Numbered from the stretch's first letter, positions 1 through 64,000 are shown. The stretch is DNA of 64,000 nt from an uncultured Chlamydiae bacterium (GCA_903893545.1 CAITMJ010000009.1:299045-363044); one strand, 5' to 3'. The notes: generated by a model from the letters alone, not told the origin. Program-made: numbers and translations.

Positions 1-3000
1 AAGGACTTTGCAGCGTCTATCTTTTAGATTCCAAAGAAGAGATCGTATTTTCTGAATTTGCCTTTTCGCAAAAGTCGGGCATTTCCTATGGACCGCTCGA
101 GCCGTACGATTTTTCCTTCAACCATCCAGCGGGGATGTGCCCCACTTGCCATGGCCTCGGCGTTTCTAGCCAGTTCGATCTAGCAAAAATCATCGACCCA
201 AACTTATCGATTGCAGAGGATTGCTGCAAGATCGGCAGCTCTTATAAAACCGTCCGCTACGGCAACATCTACGACAATCTCGCAAAAATCTATAAGTTCA
301 ACGTTCACACGCCTTGGAAAGATCTGTCAGAAAAAGCGCGCCATGCATTCCTCTACGGCACCGAGAAAAAGTGGACCAGAATGACATTCGTTCACCCAGA
401 AAAAAAGACGAGATGGGTCGAGCCGGTCCAGTGGAAAGGGGTGATTGCAGAGGCTAAAGAGAGGCTCATTGCAGCAAAGAGCGATTCTTATCGCAGGAAT
501 ATGGCCGAGCTAATGACGGAAGGTGTCTGCATCGGTTGCAATGGAGATAGAATCAAACCCTATGCGGCGGCAACAGAGCTTGGCGGCAAAAAAATTGCCG
601 AACTAACCGCCATGACTCTTGCTGAGCTCGAAGAATTTTTCAAGAATTTAACACTTTCCGATCTAGACCAGAAAATTGCGGAAGAACTCCTCAAAGAGAT
701 CCGCGATCGGATCGCCTTTTTACTTCGCGTCGGGGTCCACTACCTATCGATCGACCGAACATCGCCAACGTTAAGCGGCGGAGAATCACAACGGGTTCGC
801 TTAGCATCGCAAATCGGCGCTGGCCTTGTAGGGGCGATTTATGTATTGGATGAACCGTCGATTGGCCTGCACCCGATCGATCACCATAAGCTCATCGATA
901 CGCTAAAAAGCCTCCGCGATCAGGGCAATACAGTCATCGTGGTCGAACATGACGCCGATACGATGCTAGCAGCCGATTCTATCGTCGATGTGGGGCCTGG
1001 CGCCGGCTCTCACGGAGGCAGAATCCTTGCGCACGGAAGCGTCGATGATCTGATGAATGCAAAAGAATCGATCACGGGAGGATATCTTTCCGGCAGGCTG
1101 AAAATCGAGATCCCGACAGTTCGCCGCAAGTTAAAAAAAGGCCTCGAGATCATCGGAGCCTCTCACCATAACTTAAAAAATATCGATGTTGAAATCCCCC
1201 TCGGCGGCCTTCTTTCTGTGACGGGTGTTTCCGGGTCTGGAAAATCATCGCTCATTTCCGATATCTTAGTCCCCGCTTTAACCAACAGGCTCCATAACGG
1301 CAAAATGACCGTCGGCGACCACAAAGAAATCCGCGGTCTTGAACACCTCGATAAGATCATTGCCGTCGATCAAACGCCGATCGGTAGAACGCCTAGATCC
1401 AATGCCGCGACCTACATCAAGCTCTTCGATGATATCCGCGATCTTTTCACAGAACTGCCCGAGTCGAAAATGCGCGGATTTACGGCAGGCCACTTTAGCT
1501 TCAATGTAAAAGAGGGCTCTTGTCCTTACTGCGGCGGCCTTGGCCAGGTGAAGATCGACATGGATTTCATGGAAGACGCGGCTGTTACCTGCCCTCAGTG
1601 TAAAGGCAGGCGTTTTGATCCGGAAATTTTAGCTGTCCAGTTCAAAGGGTTGAATATCTACGATATCTTGGAACTCGATGTCGAACATGCACTCCCCTTT
1701 TTCGAAGCCTTGCCCCACATTCGAAAAAAACTCGAGGTGTTGAGCCAAGTGGGCCTTGACTATCTCACCCTCGGCCAACCATCGACGACTCTTTCTGGCG
1801 GCGAGGCGCAGCGAATCAAGCTGGCCAAAGAACTCGTCCGCCCATCGACCGGAAGAACGCTCTACATCCTCGACGAACCGACGACAGGGCTCCATTTCCA
1901 CGACATCGGCAAGCTCATCTCCATTTTACAACGCCTCGTCGACAAAGGTAACACCGTCCTTGTGATCGAGCACAACATGGATCTTGTCAAAACAGCCGAT
2001 TGGGTGATCGAACTCGGCCCTGAAGCCGGTATTCACGGCGGTAAGATCGTAGCTGAAGGAACTCCAGAGACTATCGCCAAGAAAAACACTGCGACGGCCA
2101 TTGCCTTAAAAGACGTGCTCCATCCCAAGCAGATTGTAGTAAAAAAACAAGCTGAGAGAAAAGGAAAAGAGCTCGCCTCAATCCAGATTGAAAACGCCCA
2201 GCAAAATAACCTAAAAGGACTCGATCTAGAAATCCCGCGTGGCAAAATCACCGTATTTACAGGCCCTTCCGGTTCAGGTAAATCCTCTCTTGCCTTCGAG
2301 ACGATTTATGCAGAAGGACAGAGGCGCTATACCGAAACGCTCCCCGGCTACTCGCGCCAATACGTAAAGCAGCTCCCAAAACCCAAAGTCGACCGGATCG
2401 AAGGGCTCTCTCCATCGATTGCCCTCGAGCAAAAAACGGGAGGGCTTAACCCCAGAAGCACTGTGGGCACGCTGACTGAAATCTACGATCTTCTTCGCCT
2501 TTTATACGCCCACCTCGGCACCGCCTATGATCCAGAGACAGGCGATGAGATCCGGCACATCAGCAAAGAATACGTCGTTCGAAAAGTATTGGAGCGCCCT
2601 GAAGGAGAAAAAATCCTCATTTTAACGCCGATTGCCCTCGAGAAAAAAGAGACCTTTGAAGACCTTGTCGATCGCTTTGCAAAACAGGGCTTTTTGCGCC
2701 TTCGAATCAATGGAACCCTCTATGAACTCGACCAGCCGATTCCTTTCGAAAAACACCGAAAAAATGAACTCTTTCTCGTCGTTGACCGGATGACGGTTGA
2801 CCAGAAAAATGAAAAAAGACTCTTTGAAGCGGTAGAAAAAGCAACGCAAATGTCCGATGGGATCGTCGTCGTCGCAGGAAAAGAAGATGCTTTTTTTAAC
2901 CTCGCATTTGCGGTAGAAAAAACGGGAAGATCCTATCCGCCGATTACGCCCCAAACATTTTCCTTCAACGCAGAAGCCGGCATGTGCCAAGAATGTCAAG

Positions 3001-4934
3001 GCCTCGGCATGACCTACGGCGCCCACTTTGAAGAAAACGCAACTTTGCAAAGAAAATCGATCCTAGATCTTTGCGATCGCCTCTTTAAAGACAAAGGGAG
3101 CGCGGAAAGTTATACACTCATCGAAAAATACTTCGGCAAATCGGTCGATGTCCCACTGAAAAAACTCTCCCCTGAAGAGAGGAACATCTTTTTTAATGGC
3201 GGTCCAGAAAAAACCATTAAAGGCCTCACCTTCCAATGGAAAGGGCTCCATCCCCTCTTTGCCAACGCCGCAAGGATGGCCGTCCGATCGATCCGAGAAT
3301 CGCTCCTCCCCTATTTATCGATGAGCCCCTGCCCCTCTTGCCAAGGCGCTCGCCTAAATCCACTCGCGCGCAACGTACGAATCCAAAAACTCTCGATTGG
3401 AGACTTTTGCAATCTGCCACTCTCCGATGCGCTAGAGTTTGCTAAAAAGTTAACTCCGGAGACCTTTCTTCAAGAAACACACAGCCAAATTCTCAAATCG
3501 CTCGATTTTCTTCTCTCCATTGGCGTCGGTTATCTCTCTCTTAGCCGCTCCGCTCCAACTTTAAGCGGTGGAGAGTTGCAGCGGATCCGCCTGGCCAAAC
3601 AACTCGGCTCTGGCCTTACCTCCTGCCTCTACGTCCTCGACGAGCCGACCATTGGACTCCATCCCCACAACAACGAACTTTTAAATAAAGCGCTGAAAAA
3701 ACTCTGCGACCTCGGCAACACCCTACTTCTCGTTGAACACGATCCATTGACCGTAATGCAGGCCGACTACCTCGTCGATTTCGGCCCAAAAGCGGGCAAA
3801 GATGGAGGGCATATCACTGCGTCCGGAACCATTGAGCAAATTCTCTCCAACCCAAATTCTCTAACTGGGCAATATTTAAGTGGGAAAAAGAAAATTCCAG
3901 TGCCTAAAAAACGGCGCCCCTTCTCGCCAGATATTCGGATCGAACATGCAAATATCCACAATTTAAAAGATCTAACTTTGGCCTTCCCAAAAGCGGCCAT
4001 CACGTGCCTTACCGGAGTGTCAGGTTCTGGCAAATCATCCCTCATGCGCCACCTCTTAAGACCGGCTGCGGAAAAATCGGTCAATACAAGAAGACCCGAA
4101 GAGCCGATCGACTATCTCGGCACAAAATTCTACGGACTTTCCTCTTTTGAAAAAGTAGTCTCGATCGACCAGTCTCCTATCGGACAAACCGCACGCGCCG
4201 ACGTCAGCACCTACACCGATATCCAGCCACTTCTCCGCGCTCACTACGCAGCCATGCCACAAGCCAAGATCAAAGGGCTCCAAGGGCGCCACTTCAGTCC
4301 CAACCATATCCGCGGCATGTGCCGCACTTGCTGGGGGCTTGGCTACAAAACCGTCGACCTTCAATTCCTCCCCTCCGTGCGGGTCCCTTGCGAAGCGTGC
4401 CATGGCCAAAGGCTAAACCCCATTTCCCTCGAAGTGCTCTACAAAGGTAAACACCTAGGCCAGGTTCTCGAAATGAGCGTCGAAGAGGCGTTGCAGTGGT
4501 TCTCAGAGATCCCCCGCATCGTCAAACGGCTGGCAACCCTCGCTTCAGTTGGTCTTTCCTACCTCAAACTCGGCCAGGAAGTCGCCTCTCTTTCCGGCGG
4601 CGAAGCGCAGCGGCTCCGCCTTTCCCGCGAACTTGCCAAGCGCGAATCGGGAAAAAACCTCTACCTCATCGATGAGCCGACCGTTGGCCTCCACAGCGAA
4701 GACATCGCCAAACTGCTCCCCATCTTCCAGTCTCTTGCGAACAAAAAAAACACCCTCCTCATCATCGAGCACAACCTCGACGTCATCGCAAGCGCTGATT
4801 ACCTCATCGACCTCGGCCCCGATGCGGGCATCTTCGGTGGCCAAATCATGGCTCAGGGAACTCCCGAAGAGCTCGCCAAATCAAAGCATTCCAAAACAGC
4901 CCCCTTTCTAAAAGCACACCTAAAAAACAGTTAA
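1..4934 (+). CDS. uvrA: Excinuclease ABC subunit A, double-length (tandem UvrA-UvrA) form; 5' end lies upstream of the window
   Basis: The frame of the 135..4934 ORF stays open back to nt 3 ([53 protein letters not shown]), so the listed Met is internal. Three Walker A sites are visible ([27 protein letters not shown]). There are four ABC signatures ([32 protein letters not shown]) plus CxxC zinc modules. A complete second UvrA unit begins near nt 2180 ([41 protein letters not shown]). Confidence 0.95.
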
Positions 4935-9219: not shown

Positions 9220-11934
9220 GTGAGCGAGAAGAAAACTATCAAACCGACTCCCCTTCCAAAGGCGATCGGGCCCTACAAGATTTTAGAGAGCTTAGGCCGC
9301 GGCGGCATGGGCGAGGTATTCCTCGCGCTCGATCCGACGTTTGGAAGAAAGGTCGCCCTGAAGCGAATTCGCACTGAGCTGCAGAAAAATCAAACGATCC
9401 AGAGACGATTTTTGCGAGAGGCAAAGGTCGCCAGCTCCTTGACCCACCCTTCGATCATTCCCATTTTGACGATCCAGATCGAACCTCCCGATATTTACTA
9501 CACGATGCCGTACGTCGAGGGAGAAACTCTCCGGCAAATTTTGCGCAAAGCCAAAGATCAAGAGACCCATTCGATCGATTGCTCCATCCCGGCGCTCTCC
9601 CGTATCTTTTTGCAGGTTTGTGAAGCGGTTGCCTACACTCATTCCAAGGGCATTTTGCACCGCGATCTAAAGCCGGAAAACATCATCGTCGGCAAGTACG
9701 GCGAGGTGATGATTTTAGATTGGGGAATTGCCGATTTTATCGATAGCTTAGAGAGCGATGAGAGCTTGCCAGAGGTAAGAAAAGAGAGCGAAGATTTGAC
9801 CAGACCCGGCAAAATCACGGGAACTCTTGCCTACATGGCCCCGGAGAGGTTGAAAGGAAAGTCGAGCTCCGTCCAAACGGATCTCTACGCTCTTGGCGTG
9901 ATCTTGTATCAGATTTTGGCCTTGCAGCTCCCCTTTCAAAGAAAGACGATCGCCGCGTTCAAGAAAACGGTTGATAATGAACAAATCGTAGGCCCGATTG
10001 AAGCGGCTCCTTACCGAGAAATCCCCCATCAACTCGCGGCGCTATCGACAAAATGCTTGGCCAAAGATCCTTCTGAGCGGTTTCAAACGGTAGAGGAGCT
10101 TATCGTCGAGCTGAAAAAATCGATCGAGGGACGCCCCGAATGGATTTTAGCGGGAGAGCTCAACCTCAAAAATAAAGAGGATTGGCAATTTCAGGAAAAT
10201 GTCCTCTTGGCTAAACACTTGGCCATCACGCGCAACTTCGATGTGACGCAGTGGGCGGCTCTTTCGATCTCAAAAATGACGTTTGAAGAGAACTTAAGGC
10301 TCGACGCAAAGGTAAAAATGCCTTCGAAGGGAGAAGGGATTGGCTTTCTTTTGAGCGTTCCTGCGCCTGGCGAGAGTTTGGAAGAGGGATATCTTCTTTG
10401 GGTCGGATCGGAAAGTTCTCCTTCCTGTCAGCTTTTTCGGAGCAATGTTCAGGTACTTGAAGCCCCAAATATTTTCTTGCGCTCCAATGAATGGCACCGC
10501 GTCCGCATTGAAAAAATCGATGACCATCTGAAGTTCTATTTGGATGGAGAGTTAAAACTCTCGTTTGTGAGCCATTTGCCCCTTTCTGGAAAACATATCG
10601 GCATTTTGGCCAAAGACGACCGCTTTGAGATCCAATACTGCAAAATTTACGACGGCAGCCACAATGTGATGGTCGGATGTCTGGCCGTTCCCAATGCATT
10701 TTTAAGCCGCGACCTTTTCGATATCGCGCTCGAAGAATATCGACGTATCGGGCAGTGTTTTCCTGGGCGAATGGAAGGGAGAGAAGCTCTTTTTCGCGCA
10801 GGCCTTACGATTTTAGAAAAGGCTAAGCTCGAAAAGAACAAAGTGACCCAAGAAAAGCTCTTTCATCTGGCGCTGAAAGAATTTGAAAAGCTCTACCGCA
10901 CTCCCGGCGCTCCTTTCGAATACCTTGGAAAATCACTGGTCTATCAGGCGATGGGCGATGCAGAGGAAGAGTCGAAATGTTTAGAACTTGCCCTCCGAAA
11001 ATTCCCGCGCCACCCTCTTCTATCGGTCTTAAAAGAACACATCGTCTATCGGATGCATGAGAGCTCTCTTAGCAACCGAGAAGCCGCCTATCGGATCATC
11101 CTCCTTGCGATTCGGCATATTCCCGATCTTTTGAGCAATGCAGATACGCGAACCCTGATCGATAGCCTGAAAAGAAATTGGGAACCACTCCCTTTTATCG
11201 AAGGGCCCGCCGATTCGCTCGACGAAATCTCGATCCAGCTCGCCTTTTGGCTGGCAAAAGTCCCGATCCTCGTAGAAATCGCAAAAGGGCTTACAGATGA
11301 GGTTGCTCTTTGTAATGCACTCCACGCCCTTTTGGAATTAGAAGCGGTCGAAGAAGTAAAAGCTCTTTTGAAGGAAGTCAAGCTCTCGCCAGAGCGAAAA
11401 ACGAGCCTAGAAATCGCCCTTTTAAAACCCGATGAAACAGCCATTCAAAAAGCGTTGCAATGCAAAGTGGAAACGAGAACTTTTTATCACCTTCTTCGAG
11501 GAGCTTTGAAAGCTTCATCTCCAACGCTTGTCCGAAATACCATTGAAACGCTCAAAAAAAAGACACCGGAATTTATCGCCCTTGAACTCTGGAGCCTTCT
11601 TCTTGAAAAAAAATGGAAAGAAGCTTCCAGCTTAATCAAAAAAACCACTAAAAAATCATTTCTAGAAGAGAGGTCTCCTCTCCATTTTCCCTACGGATGC
11701 TGGCTCTATACGCAGGAAGGACAAGATGCCGCTCTTGCCCATTTTGGCGAGGCGCTCGATACGCCCTATCCTGCAACTCCTGCACTTCCCAGCCATTTTC
11801 TCACCGGTCGCATCAATGAGAAAAAAGGGTGGGTCGAACGGGCTTTTTGGTGGGAGAAAAAAGAGCTCTATCGGCAGATCGATCTCTTCTACAAAATCAT
11901 CGGGAAAAAGAGTGGAAAAGCCAAAAATCCTTAA
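9220..11934 (+). CDS. pknD: Ser/Thr protein kinase PknD-type (N-terminal kinase plus ~600-aa C-terminal extension)
   Basis: Kinase motifs are GRGGMGEV, VALKRI, HRDLKPENIIV, DWGIADF and LAYMAPE. The start is GTG. The gene sits directly upstream of valS, as pknD does in Chlamydia (from memory). Confidence 0.9.
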   Translation: MSEKKTIKPTPLPKAIGPYKILESLGRGGMGEVFLALDPTFGRKVALKRIRTELQKNQTIQRRFLREAKVASSLTHPSIIPILTIQIEPPDIYYTMPYVEGETLRQILRKAKDQETHSIDCSIPALSRIFLQVCEAVAYTHSKGILHRDLKPENIIVGKYGEVMILDWGIADFIDSLESDESLPEVRKESEDLTRPGKITGTLAYMAPERLKGKSSSVQTDLYALGVILYQILALQLPFQRKTIAAFKKTVDNEQIVGPIEAAPYREIPHQLAALSTKCLAKDPSERFQTVEELIVELKKSIEGRPEWILAGELNLKNKEDWQFQENVLLAKHLAITRNFDVTQWAALSISKMTFEENLRLDAKVKMPSKGEGIGFLLSVPAPGESLEEGYLLWVGSESSPSCQLFRSNVQVLEAPNIFLRSNEWHRVRIEKIDDHLKFYLDGELKLSFVSHLPLSGKHIGILAKDDRFEIQYCKIYDGSHNVMVGCLAVPNAFLSRDLFDIALEEYRRIGQCFPGRMEGREALFRAGLTILEKAKLEKNKVTQEKLFHLALKEFEKLYRTPGAPFEYLGKSLVYQAMGDAEEESKCLELALRKFPRHPLLSVLKEHIVYRMHESSLSNREAAYRIILLAIRHIPDLLSNADTRTLIDSLKRNWEPLPFIEGPADSLDEISIQLAFWLAKVPILVEIAKGLTDEVALCNALHALLELEAVEEVKALLKEVKLSPERKTSLEIALLKPDETAIQKALQCKVETRTFYHLLRGALKASSPTLVRNTIETLKKKTPEFIALELWSLLLEKKWKEASSLIKKTTKKSFLEERSPLHFPYGCWLYTQEGQDAALAHFGEALDTPYPATPALPSHFLTGRINEKKGWVERAFWWEKKELYRQIDLFYKIIGKKSGKAKNP

Positions 11935-58132: not shown

Positions 58133-58205
58133 GGGGCAATAGCTCAGTGGTTAGAGCAGCGGACTCATAACCCGTAGGTCCACAGTTCAAGTCTGTGTTG
58201 CCCCA
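58133..58205 (+). tRNA. tRNA with CAT anticodon (elongator Met, or Ile2 if lysidine-modified)
   Basis: The sequence is GGGGCAATAGCTCAGTGGTTAGAGCAGCGGACTCATAACCCGTAGGTCCACAGTTCAAGTCTGTGTTGCCCCA. It has a perfect 7-bp acceptor stem, a 5-bp T stem and anticodon loop CTCATAA. There is one A-C mismatch at 31:39. The D-arm and T-loop resemble E. coli ileX (from memory), so its identity is ambiguous. Confidence 0.88.
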
Positions 58206-58373
58206 CATTTCTTTCCGAGTTTATCGCACTAAAAATGAACTGGTTATGCAACAGCATCAAAACCAGCCCAAATTGCGATTTCTCTCCGTGGACCATTTGT
58301 GGACCACTCGCTTACAACAATTGGCGATAACCCCAGCAGCTAACCTTTGAAAACTAAAACCAAAGGTAGCTTC

Positions 58374-59441
58374 ATGAAAGGCATCGACAAACGCACCCAC
58401 AAAGACGGGACGATCTCCTACCGCGCCCGAGTTCGAATCAAGGGACATCCAGTCCTCATCCAATCGTTCGCGTCCAAAACCCTCGCGACGAAATGGAAGC
58501 GCGACACCGAATCAGCTGTTGAACAAGGCAAATATGCATATGACAAACCTGGAAGCAAACATACTCTTGCCGACCTCGTCGATCGCTATATTGAAAGAGT
58601 CTTACCCACCAAACCCAAGAACGCCCGCAATGTGCACCAACACCTTCTCTGGTGGAAACAAGAGCTAGGAAGTTACCTCCTCTCAGACATCAAACCTAAT
58701 CTCATCGCTCAAAAACGCGATGATCTTCTTTCAAATCTGACCTGCAAAGGCAAATCACGTTCCCCCACCACTGTAGTTCGCTACCTTGCCAGTTTGTCTC
58801 ATGCCTTCGCTATCGCGGTTAGGGACTGGGAATGGATCCAGGAAAACCCCATCATGAAAATCTCAAAGCCGAAAATTTCCAATGGAAGAACTCGCTTTCT
58901 CAACGATGATGAAAAGGAAAAGCTGCTATTTGCTTGCCGAGAAAGCGAATCAAAAGGACTCTACCCAATTGTTATACTAGCTCTTTCAACTGGCATGAGG
59001 AGAGGCGAAATCATGAATCTCAAATGGGGCGATATAGATTTAGCCCAAGGTTCAATCCTCTTACAAGCCACAAAGAATGGTGAGCGGCGTTTCATTCCTC
59101 TTGTCGGAATAGCTCTAGATCTTTTGCGTTCAAAATACGCCAATCAAAACCTAGGCTCTCTCGTATTTCCTGCTCCACATTCTCCATGTAAACCTATCGA
59201 CATTCGTTCTGCTTGGGAAAGGGCTCTGAGCAAAGCCAATATTTTCAACTTCCGCTTTCATGACCTTCGGCATACGGCCGCTTCCTACTTAGCCATGAAT
59301 CAAGCGAGTCTGCTAGAAATTGGAACTCTGCTTGGCCATAAAACTGTCCAAATGACCAAGCGGTACGCCCATCTCTCCAATGCTCATCTGTATTCCATAA
59401 CATTAACTCTCACCGATAAGTTGTTCAGTAATCAGAAATAA
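58374..59441 (+). CDS. int: Tyrosine recombinase / phage-type integrase
   Basis: It has an N-terminal SAM-like arm/core-binding region. The catalytic residues are in context: MRRGEI (Arg), FHDLRHTAAS (HxxR) and GHKTVQMTKRYAH (His...Tyr). The ATG is at 58374, whereas the listed start at 58347 is a TTG. Confidence 0.9.
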   Translation: MKGIDKRTHKDGTISYRARVRIKGHPVLIQSFASKTLATKWKRDTESAVEQGKYAYDKPGSKHTLADLVDRYIERVLPTKPKNARNVHQHLLWWKQELGSYLLSDIKPNLIAQKRDDLLSNLTCKGKSRSPTTVVRYLASLSHAFAIAVRDWEWIQENPIMKISKPKISNGRTRFLNDDEKEKLLFACRESESKGLYPIVILALSTGMRRGEIMNLKWGDIDLAQGSILLQATKNGERRFIPLVGIALDLLRSKYANQNLGSLVFPAPHSPCKPIDIRSAWERALSKANIFNFRFHDLRHTAASYLAMNQASLLEIGTLLGHKTVQMTKRYAHLSNAHLYSITLTLTDKLFSNQK

Positions 59442-59550: not shown

Positions 59551-62500
59551 ATGAAAAAAAATGATTTAACACTGGTTCGACCAGATCTAGCATCACAGAT
59601 TCATCCTCACAAAAATCTAAGCTTATCGACTAAAACTATTTCGTCAAAATATACAGGAGCAATCTGGTGGATTTGTGACAAGGGACATGAATGGAAAGAA
59701 TCCCCATACAATAGATGTAAGCAAACTGACTCTAGTTGTAAATTTTGCAAATTTTCGTTGGCATCCACTCATCCTAAACTTCTAAATTTATGGCATCCTA
59801 CAAAAAATACTGATTGTTCTCCTTACACAATAACAGCAAAAACTCATAAGAAAATTTGGTGGAAATGCCCTATTGCCGATGAACATGAATGGGAAGCTCC
59901 ACCATACAATGTTGCAAGACCAAAAAATACAACCGGATGCCCTATTTGCAGAGGATTTAAAGTTATCAAGTCTAATTGTCTTGCCACAACGCACCCAGAC
60001 GTAGCCTCTGAATGGGATCATGTAAAGAATGAGTCCCTGACTCCATATGACGTCACTGCTGGCAGCGGACGCAAAGTCCATTGGAAATGCGCTAATGGAG
60101 TAGATCATACATGGATTGCTCCTGTAGGCGCCCGTACTTCTCGATCAGAAAAAAAACACGGCAAATGTCCATTCTGTCAGGGACAAAGAGTTGCTTTATC
60201 GAATTGCTTAGCAACGCTTTTCCCAGATATTGCAAAGGAATGGGATCCTGAAGCTAACTCCAATACACCATATGATGTAAGCCCTGGTAGCGGTCAGAAG
60301 GTCGCTTGGGTTTGTAAAATTGATTCTACTCATAAATGGATTACAGCAGTCTCGTCTCGAGCAGGCAGAAGAGATAACACTGGATGTCCTTATTGTAAGG
60401 GCAAAAAGACATCTCCAACAAATTGCTTAGCAGCTCTTTATCCAGATATCGCAAAAGATTGGGATTTTGAGAGCAACTCTATAACTCCCTATGAAGTAAC
60501 AGCCGGTAGTGGCCGAAAAGTAAGTTGGATATGTAAAAAAGACTCATCGCATAAGTGGAAAGCAACAGTAAGTGATCGAGTGCATGGGACAGGATGTCCA
60601 TATTGCCGGGGTCAAAAAGTTGCTTCATCAAATTGTTTAGCTATACTTTACCCAGAGCTTGCTAAAGAATGGGATCCTTCTGCCAATCAAAAAACCCCTT
60701 ACGATGTGACTCCTGGAAGTAACGATAAAATAGTCTGGAGATGTCGAAGGGACCCTTCTCACGTGTGGGAGTCTACAATAAAAAATCGAGTGAAGGGAAG
60801 AGGATGTTCATACTGTAACCTTGGTTGGACAATAGAGAATATTCGCCACTTTGTACAATCTCTAATTCCTTATCTGGATCGAATTTCTCCAGCCGGGCTT
60901 TATGTTCTGTTTCAGCAAAATGGTTTGCTGAGTATTGACAGCCTTAGTAAAGGAAAATCATTTGTGCAAGCTCTTAAAACGGGTCGCTTTCCTAAGGATG
61001 AACTTGAGAAATTTGTCGGCGGTCTTCCTTCCTTAGTAGATCAATTTTTAAATAATCCAGATTCGTCCTTAGAAGATAATTCACAAGCTTCTAGTAATTG
61101 CTTATCTGAAAATGAATTGATATTTGAAGACGACTTCCCAATTGTTGAAACAAAAGATATTTTATCCGCTTTAGACAGCAAACTTTTTTCAAATCTTGAT
61201 AATGAAGCTATTGATTTCTTTATCAAGGAAGCTGTAGCCAAAATTTGGCAACACACCTTTTCTAATGAGACTGAGGCTATTCGGCAACTTGAGCAGTATA
61301 ATAATACTGGTGCCTATCCACAAGAAGTAAAAAAACTTTTTTTATCCGATTATGTAGGTGCAAAAGAATTGCAAATACCTTCTGGATATAACTTTAAAGT
61401 AAATGGAGACATTTCCCCTCCTAATCTAATGCAGCGGTTTACTGCTTATATTGTGAAGTCACGTAGAAGATTAGGAAACTGGTCAGGAACAGGTGCAGGC
61501 AAAACACTATCTGCCATTCTTTCTAGCAGAGTAATCGACGCTCATTTTACTCTTATTTGTTGCCCAAATAATGTAGTGAACGGATGGGAAAATAAGATAG
61601 GAACTATCTACCCAGATAGCATCATTTTTATCAAAGATACTAAGACATCTATACCGCCAAATAAACATGCATACTTGATACTCAACTACGAATTTTTCCA
61701 ACAGCCGCAGTCTGAAAGCAAGCTTAAAGATCTCATAGAACGTCAAAAAATAGACTTCATTGTCATCGATGAAATTCACTACTCAAAACAACGCATTGTC
61801 GAAGACATGTCAAAACGCAAAAAGGTCATTTCAGCACTATTATCAGAAGCTGCGGCTAAAAATGATAACCTCCATGTTTTAGGCATGTCTGCTACTCCAG
61901 TGATTAATAATCTTTTTGAAGGTAAAACGCTGATCGAGCTTATCACTGGCTTTATTCATGATGACTTACGCACCATTCCATCCGTAGGTAATTGCATAGC
62001 ATTATATCAGAAGCTGGTATCAACTGGAATCAGGTGGCTTCCTCGCTATCAACAGAAAATAGATGTAAAAACGATTGAGGTAGATTGCAGTTCTCATCTT
62101 GAACAAATTAAAAATGTTAGCCTGCAAGGTTCTATGGTCGATCTTGAGGCTGTTCTAACTCAAGTAAAGATTCCAATAATTCTAGAAAATCTTAAGCCAA
62201 AAACCATTGTGTATACCCATTATCTCAAAGACATTCTGATTCCATTAAAGGAAGCTATTGAGAATCATGGCTGGAAAACCGCAATTTTTTCAGGTGACGA
62301 TAAAAGCGGCCTAGAAGAATTTATCAAATTTGATGCTGATATTCTGATTGCTTCAAGCTGCCTAGGAACTGGTATTGACGGATTACAGCATGTGTGTAAT
62401 CGAATCATCATCAACACATTGCCCTGGACCCATGCCGAATTTGAGCAATTAAAAGGCAGAATTTATCGACAAGGGCAAAAAAACGATTATGTTGATATCT

Positions 62501-63336
62501 TTGTGCCCCTCACTTACGCGAGTATCAATGGAGAACGGTGGTCTTGGTGTGATTCAAGATGGAATCGTATCCTATTTAAAAAATCAATTGCCGATGCTGC
62601 TGTTGATGGAATCATCCCAGAAGGGCACTTAAGAACTCCTGCTCAGGCATATCAAGATACTATGAACTGGCTAAAGCGGCTGGAAGAAGGTGATTTGCAT
62701 GAGATTGAGCGACGAAAGATTGATCTTCGGCTCTCAGATGAAGTTATCCAAAGGGGCGTAAGGAAGTTTGGCGATTTTTCTAAAATGAATCATCAGTTAA
62801 ATTCTACAAACAGCACTATAACTCATAAAAGATTCCAAAAAAGTCCAGAGGATTGGGAGTATTATCATGCTATGTACCGCGAAGCACGGAAAGAGTGGGC
62901 GATCGTTCCTTATCAAGAAGCAATCAAATGGTGTAAAGCGCGACCTCATCTAGTAATTGGAGATTTTGGCTGTGGAGAGGCATTACTTGCCAAAGAGGTA
63001 GAAAACAAGATTTATTCTTTTGATCATGTAGCGATTAATGAAGATGTCACATCTTGTGATATAGCTCATGTCCCACTAGATGATGACTCTTTGGATGGGG
63101 GAATTTTCTCTCTTTCATTGATGGGAACTAACTACGTAGATTACATAAAAGAGGCTCATCGATGCTTAAAACTCGACGGACACCTTTGGATTGCAGAAGC
63201 AACCTCTCGATTCCAAAATCTTATCGGATTTGAAGATGAACTCGCTAAAATTGGGTTTGATATTGTTCGTATCCAAATAAAAGGCGATTTCACTTTTTTA
63301 CGGGCTATCAAAAGCGATAGACGCTCAATTTCCTAA
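59551..63336 (+). CDS. Giant fusion protein: 6x CxxC zinc-ribbon repeats, linker, SNF2-family ATPase and Rrp8-like (Methyltransf_8-type) SAM methyltransferase
   Basis: Zn-ribbon repeats span aa ~8-423. SNF2 motifs are GTGAGKT (61486-61506), CPNNVVNGW, VIDEIHY (61762-61779), MSATPVINNLFE, SSCLGTGIDGL and QLKGRIYRQGQ (62446-62478). The C-terminus (IGDFGCGEALLA...VTSCDIAHVPLDDDSLDGGIFSLSLMGTNYVDYIKEAHRCLKLDGHLWIAEATSRF) is collinear with eukaryotic Rrp8/NML as recalled from memory. Confidence 0.85.
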   Translation: MKKNDLTLVRPDLASQIHPHKNLSLSTKTISSKYTGAIWWICDKGHEWKESPYNRCKQTDSSCKFCKFSLASTHPKLLNLWHPTKNTDCSPYTITAKTHKKIWWKCPIADEHEWEAPPYNVARPKNTTGCPICRGFKVIKSNCLATTHPDVASEWDHVKNESLTPYDVTAGSGRKVHWKCANGVDHTWIAPVGARTSRSEKKHGKCPFCQGQRVALSNCLATLFPDIAKEWDPEANSNTPYDVSPGSGQKVAWVCKIDSTHKWITAVSSRAGRRDNTGCPYCKGKKTSPTNCLAALYPDIAKDWDFESNSITPYEVTAGSGRKVSWICKKDSSHKWKATVSDRVHGTGCPYCRGQKVASSNCLAILYPELAKEWDPSANQKTPYDVTPGSNDKIVWRCRRDPSHVWESTIKNRVKGRGCSYCNLGWTIENIRHFVQSLIPYLDRISPAGLYVLFQQNGLLSIDSLSKGKSFVQALKTGRFPKDELEKFVGGLPSLVDQFLNNPDSSLEDNSQASSNCLSENELIFEDDFPIVETKDILSALDSKLFSNLDNEAIDFFIKEAVAKIWQHTFSNETEAIRQLEQYNNTGAYPQEVKKLFLSDYVGAKELQIPSGYNFKVNGDISPPNLMQRFTAYIVKSRRRLGNWSGTGAGKTLSAILSSRVIDAHFTLICCPNNVVNGWENKIGTIYPDSIIFIKDTKTSIPPNKHAYLILNYEFFQQPQSESKLKDLIERQKIDFIVIDEIHYSKQRIVEDMSKRKKVISALLSEAAAKNDNLHVLGMSATPVINNLFEGKTLIELITGFIHDDLRTIPSVGNCIALYQKLVSTGIRWLPRYQQKIDVKTIEVDCSSHLEQIKNVSLQGSMVDLEAVLTQVKIPIILENLKPKTIVYTHYLKDILIPLKEAIENHGWKTAIFSGDDKSGLEEFIKFDADILIASSCLGTGIDGLQHVCNRIIINTLPWTHAEFEQLKGRIYRQGQKNDYVDIFVPLTYASINGERWSWCDSRWNRILFKKSIADAAVDGIIPEGHLRTPAQAYQDTMNWLKRLEEGDLHEIERRKIDLRLSDEVIQRGVRKFGDFSKMNHQLNSTNSTITHKRFQKSPEDWEYYHAMYREARKEWAIVPYQEAIKWCKARPHLVIGDFGCGEALLAKEVENKIYSFDHVAINEDVTSCDIAHVPLDDDSLDGGIFSLSLMGTNYVDYIKEAHRCLKLDGHLWIAEATSRFQNLIGFEDELAKIGFDIVRIQIKGDFTFLRAIKSDRRSIS
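59572..60819 (+). repeat. Six tandem ~70-aa coding repeats (zinc-ribbon/treble-clef-like, DUF4379-like)
   Basis: The repeat consensus is NCLA..(Y/F/H)P(D/E)(I/V/L)A.EWD...N..TPY(D/E)V(T/S).GS..KV.W.C....H.W.......R......GCP(Y/F/I)C.G.K. Units start near aa 8, 68, 141, 217, 290 and 360. Confidence 0.8.
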
Positions 63337-63343
63337 CTGGAAA

Positions 63344-64000
63344 TTAAAGCTGTTTGATTCCTTCAATAAAACTTAGCAAATGGTTAACATTAACAACAAA
63401 AACTGTTTTTTCATAGCTTCCTGACTCTGTGAGTATTTCCTGCTTTCCAACATCCCATTTCACTGAATCTGAAAAATTAAAACCCAAATAATTTTCCTGT
63501 TGAAAATTACAAAAGTCTTGCAAATCCCCATCAGCATCGATCTGCTCTGGCTTAAATTCAATTGAATAAAGCTTCGCATTTGTTACAATTACAGGAAGGA
63601 ATGTGACAAGCTCTGAAAGAAACTCCCGCTTTTGGTGTAGCTTCCAAATATATGCTTCCAAGTTTTTGAAGGTTTGCCGCGTGAATCCATGTAATATCTC
63701 TTCTCTGCCCGCTCTCTCAGCTAGTTCCGGCGCAAAATCTACTTTACCCTTCTTAGCTCTCTGAAACGCACCTTGATTTTCTAAAACTTCAAGACAATAA
63801 GGAAAAGTTTTTAATTTAGATTTTAGCATGGCTTGTGGATTGATCTGTATTGTTCTCAATCCTGCATTTTGCTGTATTAAACAACCTTCATTTCTATATT
63901 CTGTAGATCTCAAAAAATAAAAGGAGTAGAAAGATCTTTTACATTCAAATAAAAAACGGAGACGAAATGTCGAAAGCAAGCAATCAATCTCAATCCTTTC
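63344..64000 (-). CDS. Hypothetical protein, probably 5'-partial (frame open to the window edge); possible PD-(D/E)xK-type nuclease motif near the edge
   Basis: The reading frame continues past the listed TTG start (63979) to nt 64000 (ERIEIDC...). The segment EIDCLLSTFRLRFLFECKRS fits a D-x13-ExK restriction-endonuclease-like pattern. An internal ATG alternative is at 63829. The gene is convergent with, and 7 nt from, the giant gene. Confidence 0.45.
   Translation of the reverse strand, partial: ERIEIDCLLSTFRLRFLFECKRSFYSFYFLRSTEYRNEGCLIQQNAGLRTIQINPQAMLKSKLKTFPYCLEVLENQGAFQRAKKGKVDFAPELAERAGREEILHGFTRQTFKNLEAYIWKLHQKREFLSELVTFLPVIVTNAKLYSIEFKPEQIDADGDLQDFCNFQQENYLGFNFSDSVKWDVGKQEILTESGSYEKTVFVVNVNHLLSFIEGIKQL

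Follow-up and report, generated by a model that had tools for sequence, protein, structure and literature searches.

Architecture of the gene product

The stretch of DNA analysed here (the window) comprises 64,000 nucleotides from an uncultured Chlamydiae bacterium (GCA_903893545.1, CAITMJ010000009.1:299045-363044). The gene under study was located at positions 59551-63336 on the plus strand, where the listing of open reading frames (ORFs) gave one uninterrupted frame with an ATG start and a 1261-aa product. A reading made earlier from the sequence alone (the original prediction) had described this product as a single polypeptide fusing a zinc-ribbon array, an SNF2 ATPase and a eukaryote-type Rrp8-like methyltransferase; the three-part fusion was confirmed by the reading frame, by Pfam and by structure comparison. 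The product was divided into four regions:

59551-60825, plus strand, aa 1-425: six DUF4379 treble-clef zinc-finger units, net charge +24 (Pfam)
60826-61425, plus strand, aa 426-625: conserved all-alpha domain, two helical bundles and a disordered acidic linker (alignments, AlphaFold)
61426-62730, plus strand, aa 626-1060: SNF2-family ATPase motor, in which motifs I, Ia, II, III, V and VI are intact, and a conserved linker after it (Pfam, structure)
62731-63336, plus strand, aa 1061-1261: Rrp8/Methyltransf_8 class I S-adenosylmethionine (SAM) methyltransferase with SAM motifs I-IV intact, and the stop codon (Pfam, 2zfu)

All SNF2/superfamily 2 (SF2) and methyltransferase motifs quoted in the original prediction were found at the expected positions with the catalytic residues intact, namely GTGAGKT (aa 646-652), CPNNVVNGW (671-679), DEIH (740-743), SATPVINN (780-787), QLKGRIYRQGQ (966-976), GDFGCGEA (1137-1144), FSLSLMGTN (1186-1194) and AEATSRF (1215-1221). 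The (D/N/S)PP(Y/F) motif, reported there as missing, was indeed absent, with 0 occurrences of [DNS]PP[YFW] in the whole 1261-aa protein. A Pfam scan of the protein returned DUF4379 six times (E = 9.9e-93, 304.7 bits), ResIII at aa 628-783, Helicase_C at aa 878-975 and Methyltransf_8 (PF05148) at aa 1074-1251 (E = 1.6e-47; score 162.6 bits, cut-off 27). Of the families expected beforehand, Helicase_C, Methyltransf_8 and DUF4379 were above threshold, and SNF2-rel_dom (PF00176) fell just under it (23.5 bits against a cut-off of 24.9). The ratio of nonsynonymous to synonymous substitution rates (dN/dS), calculated against a 96% identical copy in another genome, was 0.10 overall and 0.14, 0.10, 0.07 and 0.14 for zinc fingers, middle domain, motor and methyltransferase, respectively; on this basis the gene is under purifying selection and functional.

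The product is read here, with a probability of roughly 0.55, as a single-polypeptide, ATP-driven, DNA-tracking methyltransferase that travels as cargo on mobile elements and serves in conflicts of genomes with invading DNA, because an SNF2 fold is combined with front ends of endonuclease type and with mobile carriage alongside a restriction-modification (RM) operon. We infer DNA to be the substrate and methylation to be coupled to translocation.

SNF2-type motor

Because the sequence profile alone left SNF2 borderline, the assignment was based on structural neighbours. The PF00176 cut-off was passed by several homologues (P0117, 26.1 bits; P0161, 35.9 bits; viral L087, 39.9 bits). An AlphaFold model covering aa 420-1261, built on a 40-sequence alignment, reached a mean predicted local distance difference test score (pLDDT) of 81.8 and a predicted template modelling score (pTM) of 0.65. 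Structure prediction had been proposed as a check, and its outcome for the motor was in favour of SNF2: among the top 50 matches of a PDB structure search, every one, RRP8 aside, was an SNF2-family enzyme or a complex containing one. These included Mot1, Ino80, ISW1, ISWI, Chd1, BAF/RSC, SMARCAD1, CSB and Rad54 and, from prokaryotes, E. coli RapA, Zorya ZorD and the Sulfolobus SNF2 core (SsoRad54), with a template modelling (TM) score of 0.65 for Ino80 and ISW1. In the model, the two RecA lobes carry helical inserts specific to SNF2 enzymes, after motif III and after the first strand of lobe 2, and motifs I, Ia, II (DExH), III, V and VI were invariant in alignments of 23 and 40 homologues. Using PHROGs, the best match of the motor was phrog_62 'DNA helicase' (E = 1.2e-35), followed by weaker matches to profiles of about 2270 positions, one of them annotated DNA methyltransferase. 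By its predicted fold the motor is SNF2-like and not a DEAD/DEAH-type RNA helicase; ATPase activity driven by double-stranded DNA (dsDNA), with translocation, is predicted for it.

N-terminal zinc-finger array and all-alpha domain

A zinc array was found as foreseen; it has six units, which are DUF4379 (PF14311) treble-clef fingers and not ribbons. The unit pattern is W-x-C ... H-x-W ... C-x2-C, with six CxxC pairs in the window protein and unit cores at aa 39-66, 103-133, 178-209, 253-282, 326-352 and 396-422. The array is basic, as its net charge indicates, and its first unit opens the N-terminus with no added leader or extension before it. Homologues carried 2 to 14 units (mode 6), and six homologues of more than 1000 aa, including the deletion derivative P0011 described below, were without the array. 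Identity between units was 50% within one protein against 44-48% for same-position units in orthologues, and the best-matching unit stood at the same position in 17-35% of cases against a chance expectation of 17%. Since positional orthology is lacking and similarity within a protein exceeds that between orthologues, the units are interchangeable modules evolving in concert, with no fixed reading head. The idea that the array replaces a target-recognition domain (TRD), part of the original prediction, is not supported in the form given, on these grounds together with the variable number of units and the presence of other repeats, or none, elsewhere in the family. A TAL-like programmable reader was rejected for the missing positional orthology, the concerted evolution and the dN/dS of 0.14 between close copies; TAL_effector, DnaJ and like Pfam entries in the homologue table were short sub-threshold matches where re-scanned (P0008).

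In PHROGs, the array region matched phage HNH and other endonuclease families, including phrog_559 and phrog_681, and in marseilleviruses four DUF4379 domains are fused to a putative restriction endonuclease (PMC5513546). Alternative N-terminal modules within the family were DUF723, INT_rpt, HNH_repeat, sigma-70 region 4 and the RNAP alpha-CTD, or none. Because these modules are swapped or missing among family members, the unit under selection is the motor plus the Rrp8-type methylase, with an exchangeable DNA-binding front end.

Arrays were also observed apart from the fusion, and stand-alone ones are frequent on plasmids of Bacillus and Rhodococcus: 157 plasmid records (Bacillus, Rhodococcus, Piscirickettsia and Streptomyces among them) were retrieved, many matching the zinc-finger array only, and on Bacillus mycoides plasmid pl523 (L085 3995-5254) a stand-alone DUF4379 array of about 420 aa adjoins a site-specific integrase.

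The all-alpha domain (aa 426-625) was modelled with a pLDDT of 85 as two helical bundles with an acidic disordered linker between them. Residues W426, F434, G458, L538, D550, W566 and F597 were invariant in both the 23- and the 40-sequence alignment, and Y451, Q456 and L607 additionally in the 23-sequence alignment. A PDB structure search with this domain gave no neighbour at E<1.

Methyltransferase domain and eukaryotic Rrp8

Rrp8/nucleomethylin is the 25S/28S rRNA N1-methyladenine (m1A) methyltransferase of eukaryotes. Human RRP8 (2zfu) matched the methyltransferase domain by sequence (E = 1.6e-35) and by structure (TM 0.85, root-mean-square deviation 2.2-2.5 Å); the Rrp8-specific N-terminal extension was retained in the window protein, and DFGCG, FDH, CD and SLSLMG were conserved. 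With the METHYLTRANSFERASE domain alone as query against 1.84 billion cluster representatives, 2886 proteins were obtained at E<=1e-3 and 344 at E<=1e-30. Long fusion proteins came at E values of 1e-79 to 1e-37, and authentic Rrp8 proteins (300-700 aa), 41-47% identical to the window domain, from about 1e-39 on; sources of the latter were Diphylleia, a choanoflagellate, a haptophyte, insects, amphioxus, an echinoderm and a toad.

In an unrooted neighbour-joining tree of 125 domains, 36 of 40 bootstraps recovered a clade that held 21 of the 25 sequences classified as eukaryotic and 0 of the 84 fusion proteins, and the window domain sat in the fusion clan outside that clade; being unrooted, the tree carries no direction of transfer between prokaryotes and eukaryotes. 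The Rrp8 family thus includes a large prokaryotic and viral fusion clan, and the label 'eukaryote-type' in the original prediction is only partly right: identity and fold agree with eukaryotic Rrp8, but the domain falls in a separate clan. The eukaryotic proteins further differ in their length of 300-700 aa, a low-complexity basic N-terminus and the lack of a motor. So clean a separation at 41-47% identity makes the origin of the nucleolar enzyme phylogenetically tractable. Giant viruses were considered as a bridge to eukaryotic Rrp8 and rejected, as the viral domains nest in the fusion clan and lie farther from eukaryotes (1.50) than the bacterial ones do (1.37).

Four metagenomic proteins of 1013-1196 aa (P0150, P0181, P0172 and P0211) were found to combine a different N-terminal SF2 helicase with an Rrp8-type methyltransferase. 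Their layout is the helicase with its Walker A motif ('AAPNAGKT' or 'AAPGAGK'), about 650 uncharacterised residues and then the methyltransferase; Pfam was run on P0150 and P0211. They look like an independent helicase-Rrp8 combination.

Distribution and horizontal transfer

A search of 5.8 billion proteins gave 2012 matches, of which the top 120 were nearly all full-length with the same domain order; the public names of relatives were only 'zinc-ribbon domain-containing protein' or 'DEAD/DEAH box helicase', and the window protein's own cluster had no source name. One genome was scanned for each GTDB species, about 185,579 in all, and relatives were found in 193 of them, at 38-71% identity to the window protein plus one 96% copy. 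They were distributed over about ten bacterial phyla and archaea (Chlamydiota, Verrucomicrobiota, Planctomycetota, Cyanobacteriota, Dependentiae, Myxococcota, Chloroflexota, Acidobacteriota, Gemmatimonadota, Pseudomonadota, and Thermoplasmata with other archaea). Strong conservation across phyla, at 40-66% identity, together with this patchy distribution indicates horizontal transfer of the family. No description of it was found in Pfam, NCBIfam, PADLOC or the searchable literature, in keeping with the novelty claimed for the architecture in the original prediction; the family itself, with more than 2000 protein clusters of this architecture, is large, widespread and common, merely unnamed.

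A host-directed role had also been put forward, in which the protein would be a secreted nucleomodulin of an amoeba-associated chlamydia, remodelling host chromatin or methylating host rRNA. The host genome is that of a member of the Chlamydiota, Chlamydiota or Simkaniaceae contain the closest relatives (57-71% identity), further ones being found in Dependentiae and Berkiella, and SNF2 and Rrp8 are familiar from eukaryotic nuclei. The same architecture was nevertheless present at 45-52% identity in free-living cyanobacteria, planctomycetes, myxobacteria and Chloroflexota, on actinobacterial plasmids and in archaea, without a eukaryotic host; the gene lies in an island with integrase and abortive-infection (Abi) genes and in no effector locus, and no N-terminal extension precedes the first zinc finger. 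This role is not supported and is regarded as very improbable.

Full-length copies were located on three plasmids, namely pCRI9333.01 of Crinalium epipsammum (WP_015179950.1), one of Rhodococcus sp. WAY2, and pSID of R. pyridinivorans (WP_193904176.1). The pSID copy adjoins an FtsK/SpoIIIE translocase gene, with RES-domain and SSB genes 5-7 kb away. Among 50,697 catalogued phage records, no full-length copy was found. IMG/VR contigs of up to 501 kb and 26-37% GC carried diverged relatives (31-39% identity) with Walker A and methyltransferase motif I intact and with DUF723, INT_rpt or DUF4379 repeats at their N-termini; these contigs look like giant viruses and are treated as putative. The top 50 matches in BFVD contained no catalogued viral SNF2-Rrp8 fusion and comprised only generic SNF2 helicases and DarB-like Eco57I-type fusions. 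On two IMG/VR contigs of 265-501 kb (GC 26-27%), several paralogous INT_rpt/DUF723/DUF4379 repeat proteins were seen to adjoin SNF2-Rrp8 homologues (L093 606-7543, L095 10227-11501), a multigene-family arrangement that recalls giant viruses.

An exchange of the effector for a ThiD-type hydroxymethylpyrimidine kinase, considered for homologue P0081, was rejected, the match being a 29-residue sub-threshold one inside the zinc-finger array; P0081 is simply without the methyltransferase.

Integrative island at tRNA-Met

The GC content of the window is about 0.49 up to 58 kb and drops to 0.38-0.42 beyond that point. Besides the gene under study, the following features were assigned to this part:

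58133-58206, plus strand: tRNA-Met (CAT), integration site of the island; attL core corresponding to its 3' half, ~58164-58212 (ARAGORN)
58285-58330, plus strand: 46-nt repeat, possible integrase arm site, with a second, 85% identical copy just inside the far island end (repeat search)
58347-59441, plus strand: tyrosine integrase of the island (Pfam Phage_integrase, E = 7.9e-31)
63344-64000 (L001 11618-12415), minus strand: 265-aa cargo gene, running past the window end (L001 ORF)

Positions beyond the window are given on L001, a locus of the source contig that reaches past the window end (window = L001 + 51726). Copies of 49 nt of the tRNA-Met 3' half were found in L001 at distances of 12.35 kb and 13.6 kb downstream, and the 46-nt repeat copies stand at L001 6559-6604 and 18656-18701. 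As the tRNA 3'-half copies form an attL/attR signature, the region is an integrative element, about 12.4 kb long and inserted at tRNA-Met, reaching L001 ~18839 (window-equivalent ~70565); the third copy, 1.2 kb further on, suggests a tandem or remnant insertion. Beyond the window the island holds four unannotated genes (no match in any family library), a second tyrosine integrase, a gene that weakly resembles HEPN/AbiU2, and an AbiE toxin-antitoxin pair (NTP_transf_8 and AbiEi). The 265-aa cargo gene gave no Pfam, PADLOC or PHROGs match was present only in L001 and L003 among the loci compared, and is no conserved partner of the target; neighbouring genes of 351 aa and 97 aa look like element backbone.

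In L003 (OY970364.1, 2.28 Mb), homology to the window starts exactly at 58133 and runs for 9.7 kb at 92% identity, and the flank upstream of the tRNA has no similarity to the window. The record is labelled 'uncultured Verrucomicrobiae'; the element may have passed from one lineage to another in recent times, or else the label follows GTDB in placing Chlamydiia within Verrucomicrobiota. Six other Chlamydiota-type loci have a related integrase no more than about 7.6 kb from the target gene (40-56% identity; L003, 92%), and the AbiE pair recurs in L007. A third genome (93,231-bp contig) contains a deletion derivative of the island, P0011, in which the whole zinc-finger array is gone: an integrase cut down to residues 1-258, without its catalytic C-terminus, continues in frame into the motor-methyltransferase at 'ALKTGRFP' (target aa ~474). 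Given the L003 block, the integrases near the gene in six other loci and the P0011 derivative, the target gene is a recurrent cargo of a chlamydial integrative-element family. In the Chlamydiota genome studied here, it marks an integrative island of defence type and no host-directed effector.

Gene neighbourhoods in other genomes

Clustering of 1092 ORFs from 81 loci revealed no universal partner gene. A strong association was seen only in Myxococcota: in 14 loci, for example with the pair at L072 5714-12203, a same-strand gene for an MmeI-type Type IIG RM enzyme of about 1070 aa lies upstream of the target gene, in most loci with a gap of 6-13 bp or an apparent overlap. The partner is complete, with MmeI_N, hel, Mtase, TRD and C domains, scores E = 6e-227 with the PADLOC model REase_MTase_IIG and resembles DrmMI; the pairing is kept while the RM partner diverges to 48% identity. 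The target proteins of myxobacteria contain three zinc fingers, and all their ATPase and SAM motifs are preserved. Elsewhere, Dsr1, HerA, MzaA, Type II methylases and PDC candidates occurred singly among the 148 neighbours of 32 loci, next to a few PIN, Uma2 and helix-turn-helix genes and to many housekeeping genes. One locus abuts a Type I R subunit. Estimated roughly from family counts over these 148 neighbours, with no background control, and since most neighbourhoods outside Chlamydiota and Myxococcota hold housekeeping genes, the association with defence genes is real in some clades and modest overall.

Relation to known systems

Combinations of SWI2/SNF2 ATPases with N6-adenine methylases have been described as a 'DNA methylase-helicase dyad' of 'polyvalent' proteins on phages, plasmids and conjugative transposons, with DarB of phage P1 as the archetype (PMC5512222); the term 'Rrp8' is absent from the text of that paper (Iyer et al. 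2017). Like the DarB-type proteins, the window family unites an SNF2-type motor and a SAM methyltransferase in one polypeptide, is carried by mobile elements and has spread horizontally. It differs in its Rrp8/Methyltransf_8 methylase, which takes the place of an N6-adenine methylase of the Eco57I/D12-like type (no N6_Mtase or Eco57I match in the Pfam scan of the window protein), and in the additional DUF4379 array and novel alpha domain. From its sequence, the window protein appears to be a variant of this dyad in which an Rrp8-family methylase replaces the usual N6-adenine methylase.

With the Type ISP enzymes LlaGI and LlaBIII, the window protein shares an SF2 translocase and a methyltransferase on a single polypeptide, but it lacks the Mrr/PD-(D/E)XK nuclease, the NPPY/F motif and the C-terminal TRD, and the domain order differs. 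Membership was rejected, as neither a nuclease domain (Pfam, PADLOC and PHROGs) nor NPPY/F was found and the protein ends with the Rrp8 domain. The dyad is also known from DISARM (SNF2 protein DrmD with DrmMI) and from BREX (SNF2 protein BrxHII with PglX), where SNF2 helpers accompany MmeI-like methylases. The Myxococcota loci resemble these systems in placing the gene after an MmeI-type/DrmMI-like gene; they differ in having no DrmA/B/C, PglZ or BrxC and a complete Type IIG enzyme as the partner, and most family members are partnerless. DISARM membership was rejected too: the NCBIfam DrmD models reached 33.6-34.4 bits against cut-offs of 610 and 950, DrmD models matched only some 60 residues around motif VI, PADLOC matches covered no more than a part of lobe 2 (60-130 residues), and drmA, drmB and drmC were found neither in the island nor as a cluster among the 81 loci. 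The first reading in the original prediction, a translocase-methyltransferase defence enzyme like Type ISP or DISARM, holds in outline as a conflict enzyme, considering the SNF2 motor, the Abi island and the RM operon, and fails as to membership in either system. The Myxococcota operon would then be a minimal two-gene analogue of BREX/DISARM logic.

DUF4379-array endonucleases (the putative restriction endonuclease ISTM_159 of a marseillevirus, and the phage HNH-type families phrog_559 and phrog_681) likewise have N-terminal tandem DUF4379 units before a DNA-acting catalytic domain; the effector is a nuclease there and an SNF2 motor with a methyltransferase in the window protein. Fungal DNMT5 is an SNF2 ATPase fused to a cytosine-5 methyltransferase, dependent on ATP hydrolysis and equipped with a RING domain. 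As another fusion of SNF2 with a methyltransferase, it offers an analogy for motor-assisted access to bases; it differs as a eukaryotic C5-cytosine methylase with a RING domain and an unrelated methyltransferase family.

Proposed function and competing explanations

For a DNA-tracking conflict methyltransferase, the following mechanism is proposed. The basic array of interchangeable zinc fingers would anchor the enzyme on DNA by multivalent, weakly specific contacts; the SNF2 motor would move along duplex DNA without strand separation, clearing bound proteins and straining the helix; and the C-terminal Rrp8-type domain would transfer methyl groups from SAM to the bases presented by the motor. 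The methyl mark could protect the DNA, by self-marking or anti-restriction, or harm it, which are two versions of the proposal. An Rrp8-type methyltransferase, so far seen as a nucleolar rRNA enzyme, would here be placed behind a dsDNA-translocating SNF2 motor on mobile elements.

Several observations weigh against this proposal. All three canonical DNA-methylase signatures are missing from the window protein, as is any canonical DNA-methylase Pfam domain, and PADLOC and NCBIfam hold no model for it. It contains no nuclease or other effector, so that classical DNA restriction by this protein is impossible. In biochemical terms the Rrp8 family is not known for any activity but N1-adenine methylation of rRNA, and it is not known to act on DNA. 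The DUF4379 protein mt-SAF33 is present in a trypanosome mitoribosome assembly intermediate (6sga), which makes RNA binding by the array conceivable. In a Chlamydiae metagenome-assembled genome, the copy at L022 10001-13093 (P0071) ends at a stop codon that lies in the linker, directly ahead of where the methyltransferase would begin; no methyltransferase domain follows within 10 kb, and the copy is decaying or represents a motor-only variant. Outside Chlamydiota and Myxococcota, finally, the neighbours are mostly ordinary housekeeping genes, and many loci are solitary.

The last of these points would fit a domesticated nucleoid or transcription factor, a RapA/Mot1-like remodeller that plays no part in conflict and whose methyltransferase acts on a protein or on nascent RNA; many insertions stand alone among housekeeping genes, and RapA and Mot1 are among the structural neighbours. 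A housekeeping function predicts vertical inheritance, however, and the family, found in 193 of about 185,579 species, has clearly been transferred horizontally and is borne by islands, plasmids and viral contigs, which makes such a factor improbable.

The main rival is an RNA-directed N1-adenine methyltransferase of rRNA or tRNA like Rrp8, with the ATPase remodelling RNA or ribonucleoprotein and the zinc fingers binding RNA; a possible role would be the alteration of host ribosomes so that they resist a ribosome-targeting toxin or antibiotic. The identity of 41-47% to authentic Rrp8 with its N-terminal extension and SAM motifs kept, the missing DNA-methylase motif and the mitoribosomal DUF4379 protein all speak for it. 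We consider it unlikely all the same, since the motor has only SNF2 dsDNA translocases as structural neighbours and no DEAD, DEAH or Ski2 RNA helicase, the modules found at the N-terminus in place of the array are those with which homing and restriction endonucleases bind DNA, and the patchy horizontal distribution and the operon with a DNA restriction enzyme are unlike a ribosome-biogenesis factor.

If the substrate of the DNA-tracking enzyme is DNA, the mark would be none of the three canonical DNA methylations, because the catalytic signatures are missing; and as the amino-methylase signature and the canonical Pfam domains are absent and the active site is Rrp8-like, a non-canonical ring-nitrogen mark such as m1A would be a candidate. 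It is conceivable, at low odds, that the SNF2 motor feeds duplex DNA to the Rrp8-type domain, which writes N1-methyladenine or a similar ring-nitrogen mark, as a weapon or as a protective mark. Such a mark would constitute a fourth enzymatic DNA-methylation chemistry in prokaryotes and giant viruses and would suggest that nucleolar Rrp8/nucleomethylin, which is chromatin-associated in humans, descended from a DNA-tracking conflict enzyme.

As an explanation in its own right, a toxic methylation effector would place N1-methyladenine or another ring-nitrogen lesion in foreign DNA and block its replication, with no need of a nuclease. The missing nuclease and the missing amino-methylase motif would both be accounted for, and the Rrp8-like active-site scaffold, the carriage alongside abortive-infection genes and a family that is strongly conserved yet mobile are in line with it. 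We hold it to be doubtful: neither a module for self/non-self discrimination nor, among the neighbours, a demethylase or repair gene was identified, and we know of no precedent for enzymatic m1A in DNA.

Other features of the window

Outside the island, a 710-aa ORF at 51337-53469 gave no NCBIfam match at E<=1e-5. Two further genes of the window were annotated, both of them usual for chlamydiae and used only to recognise the phylum of the host:

135-4934: duplicated UvrA, 1599 aa, of the chlamydial PRK00635 type
9220-11934: PknD-type Ser/Thr kinase

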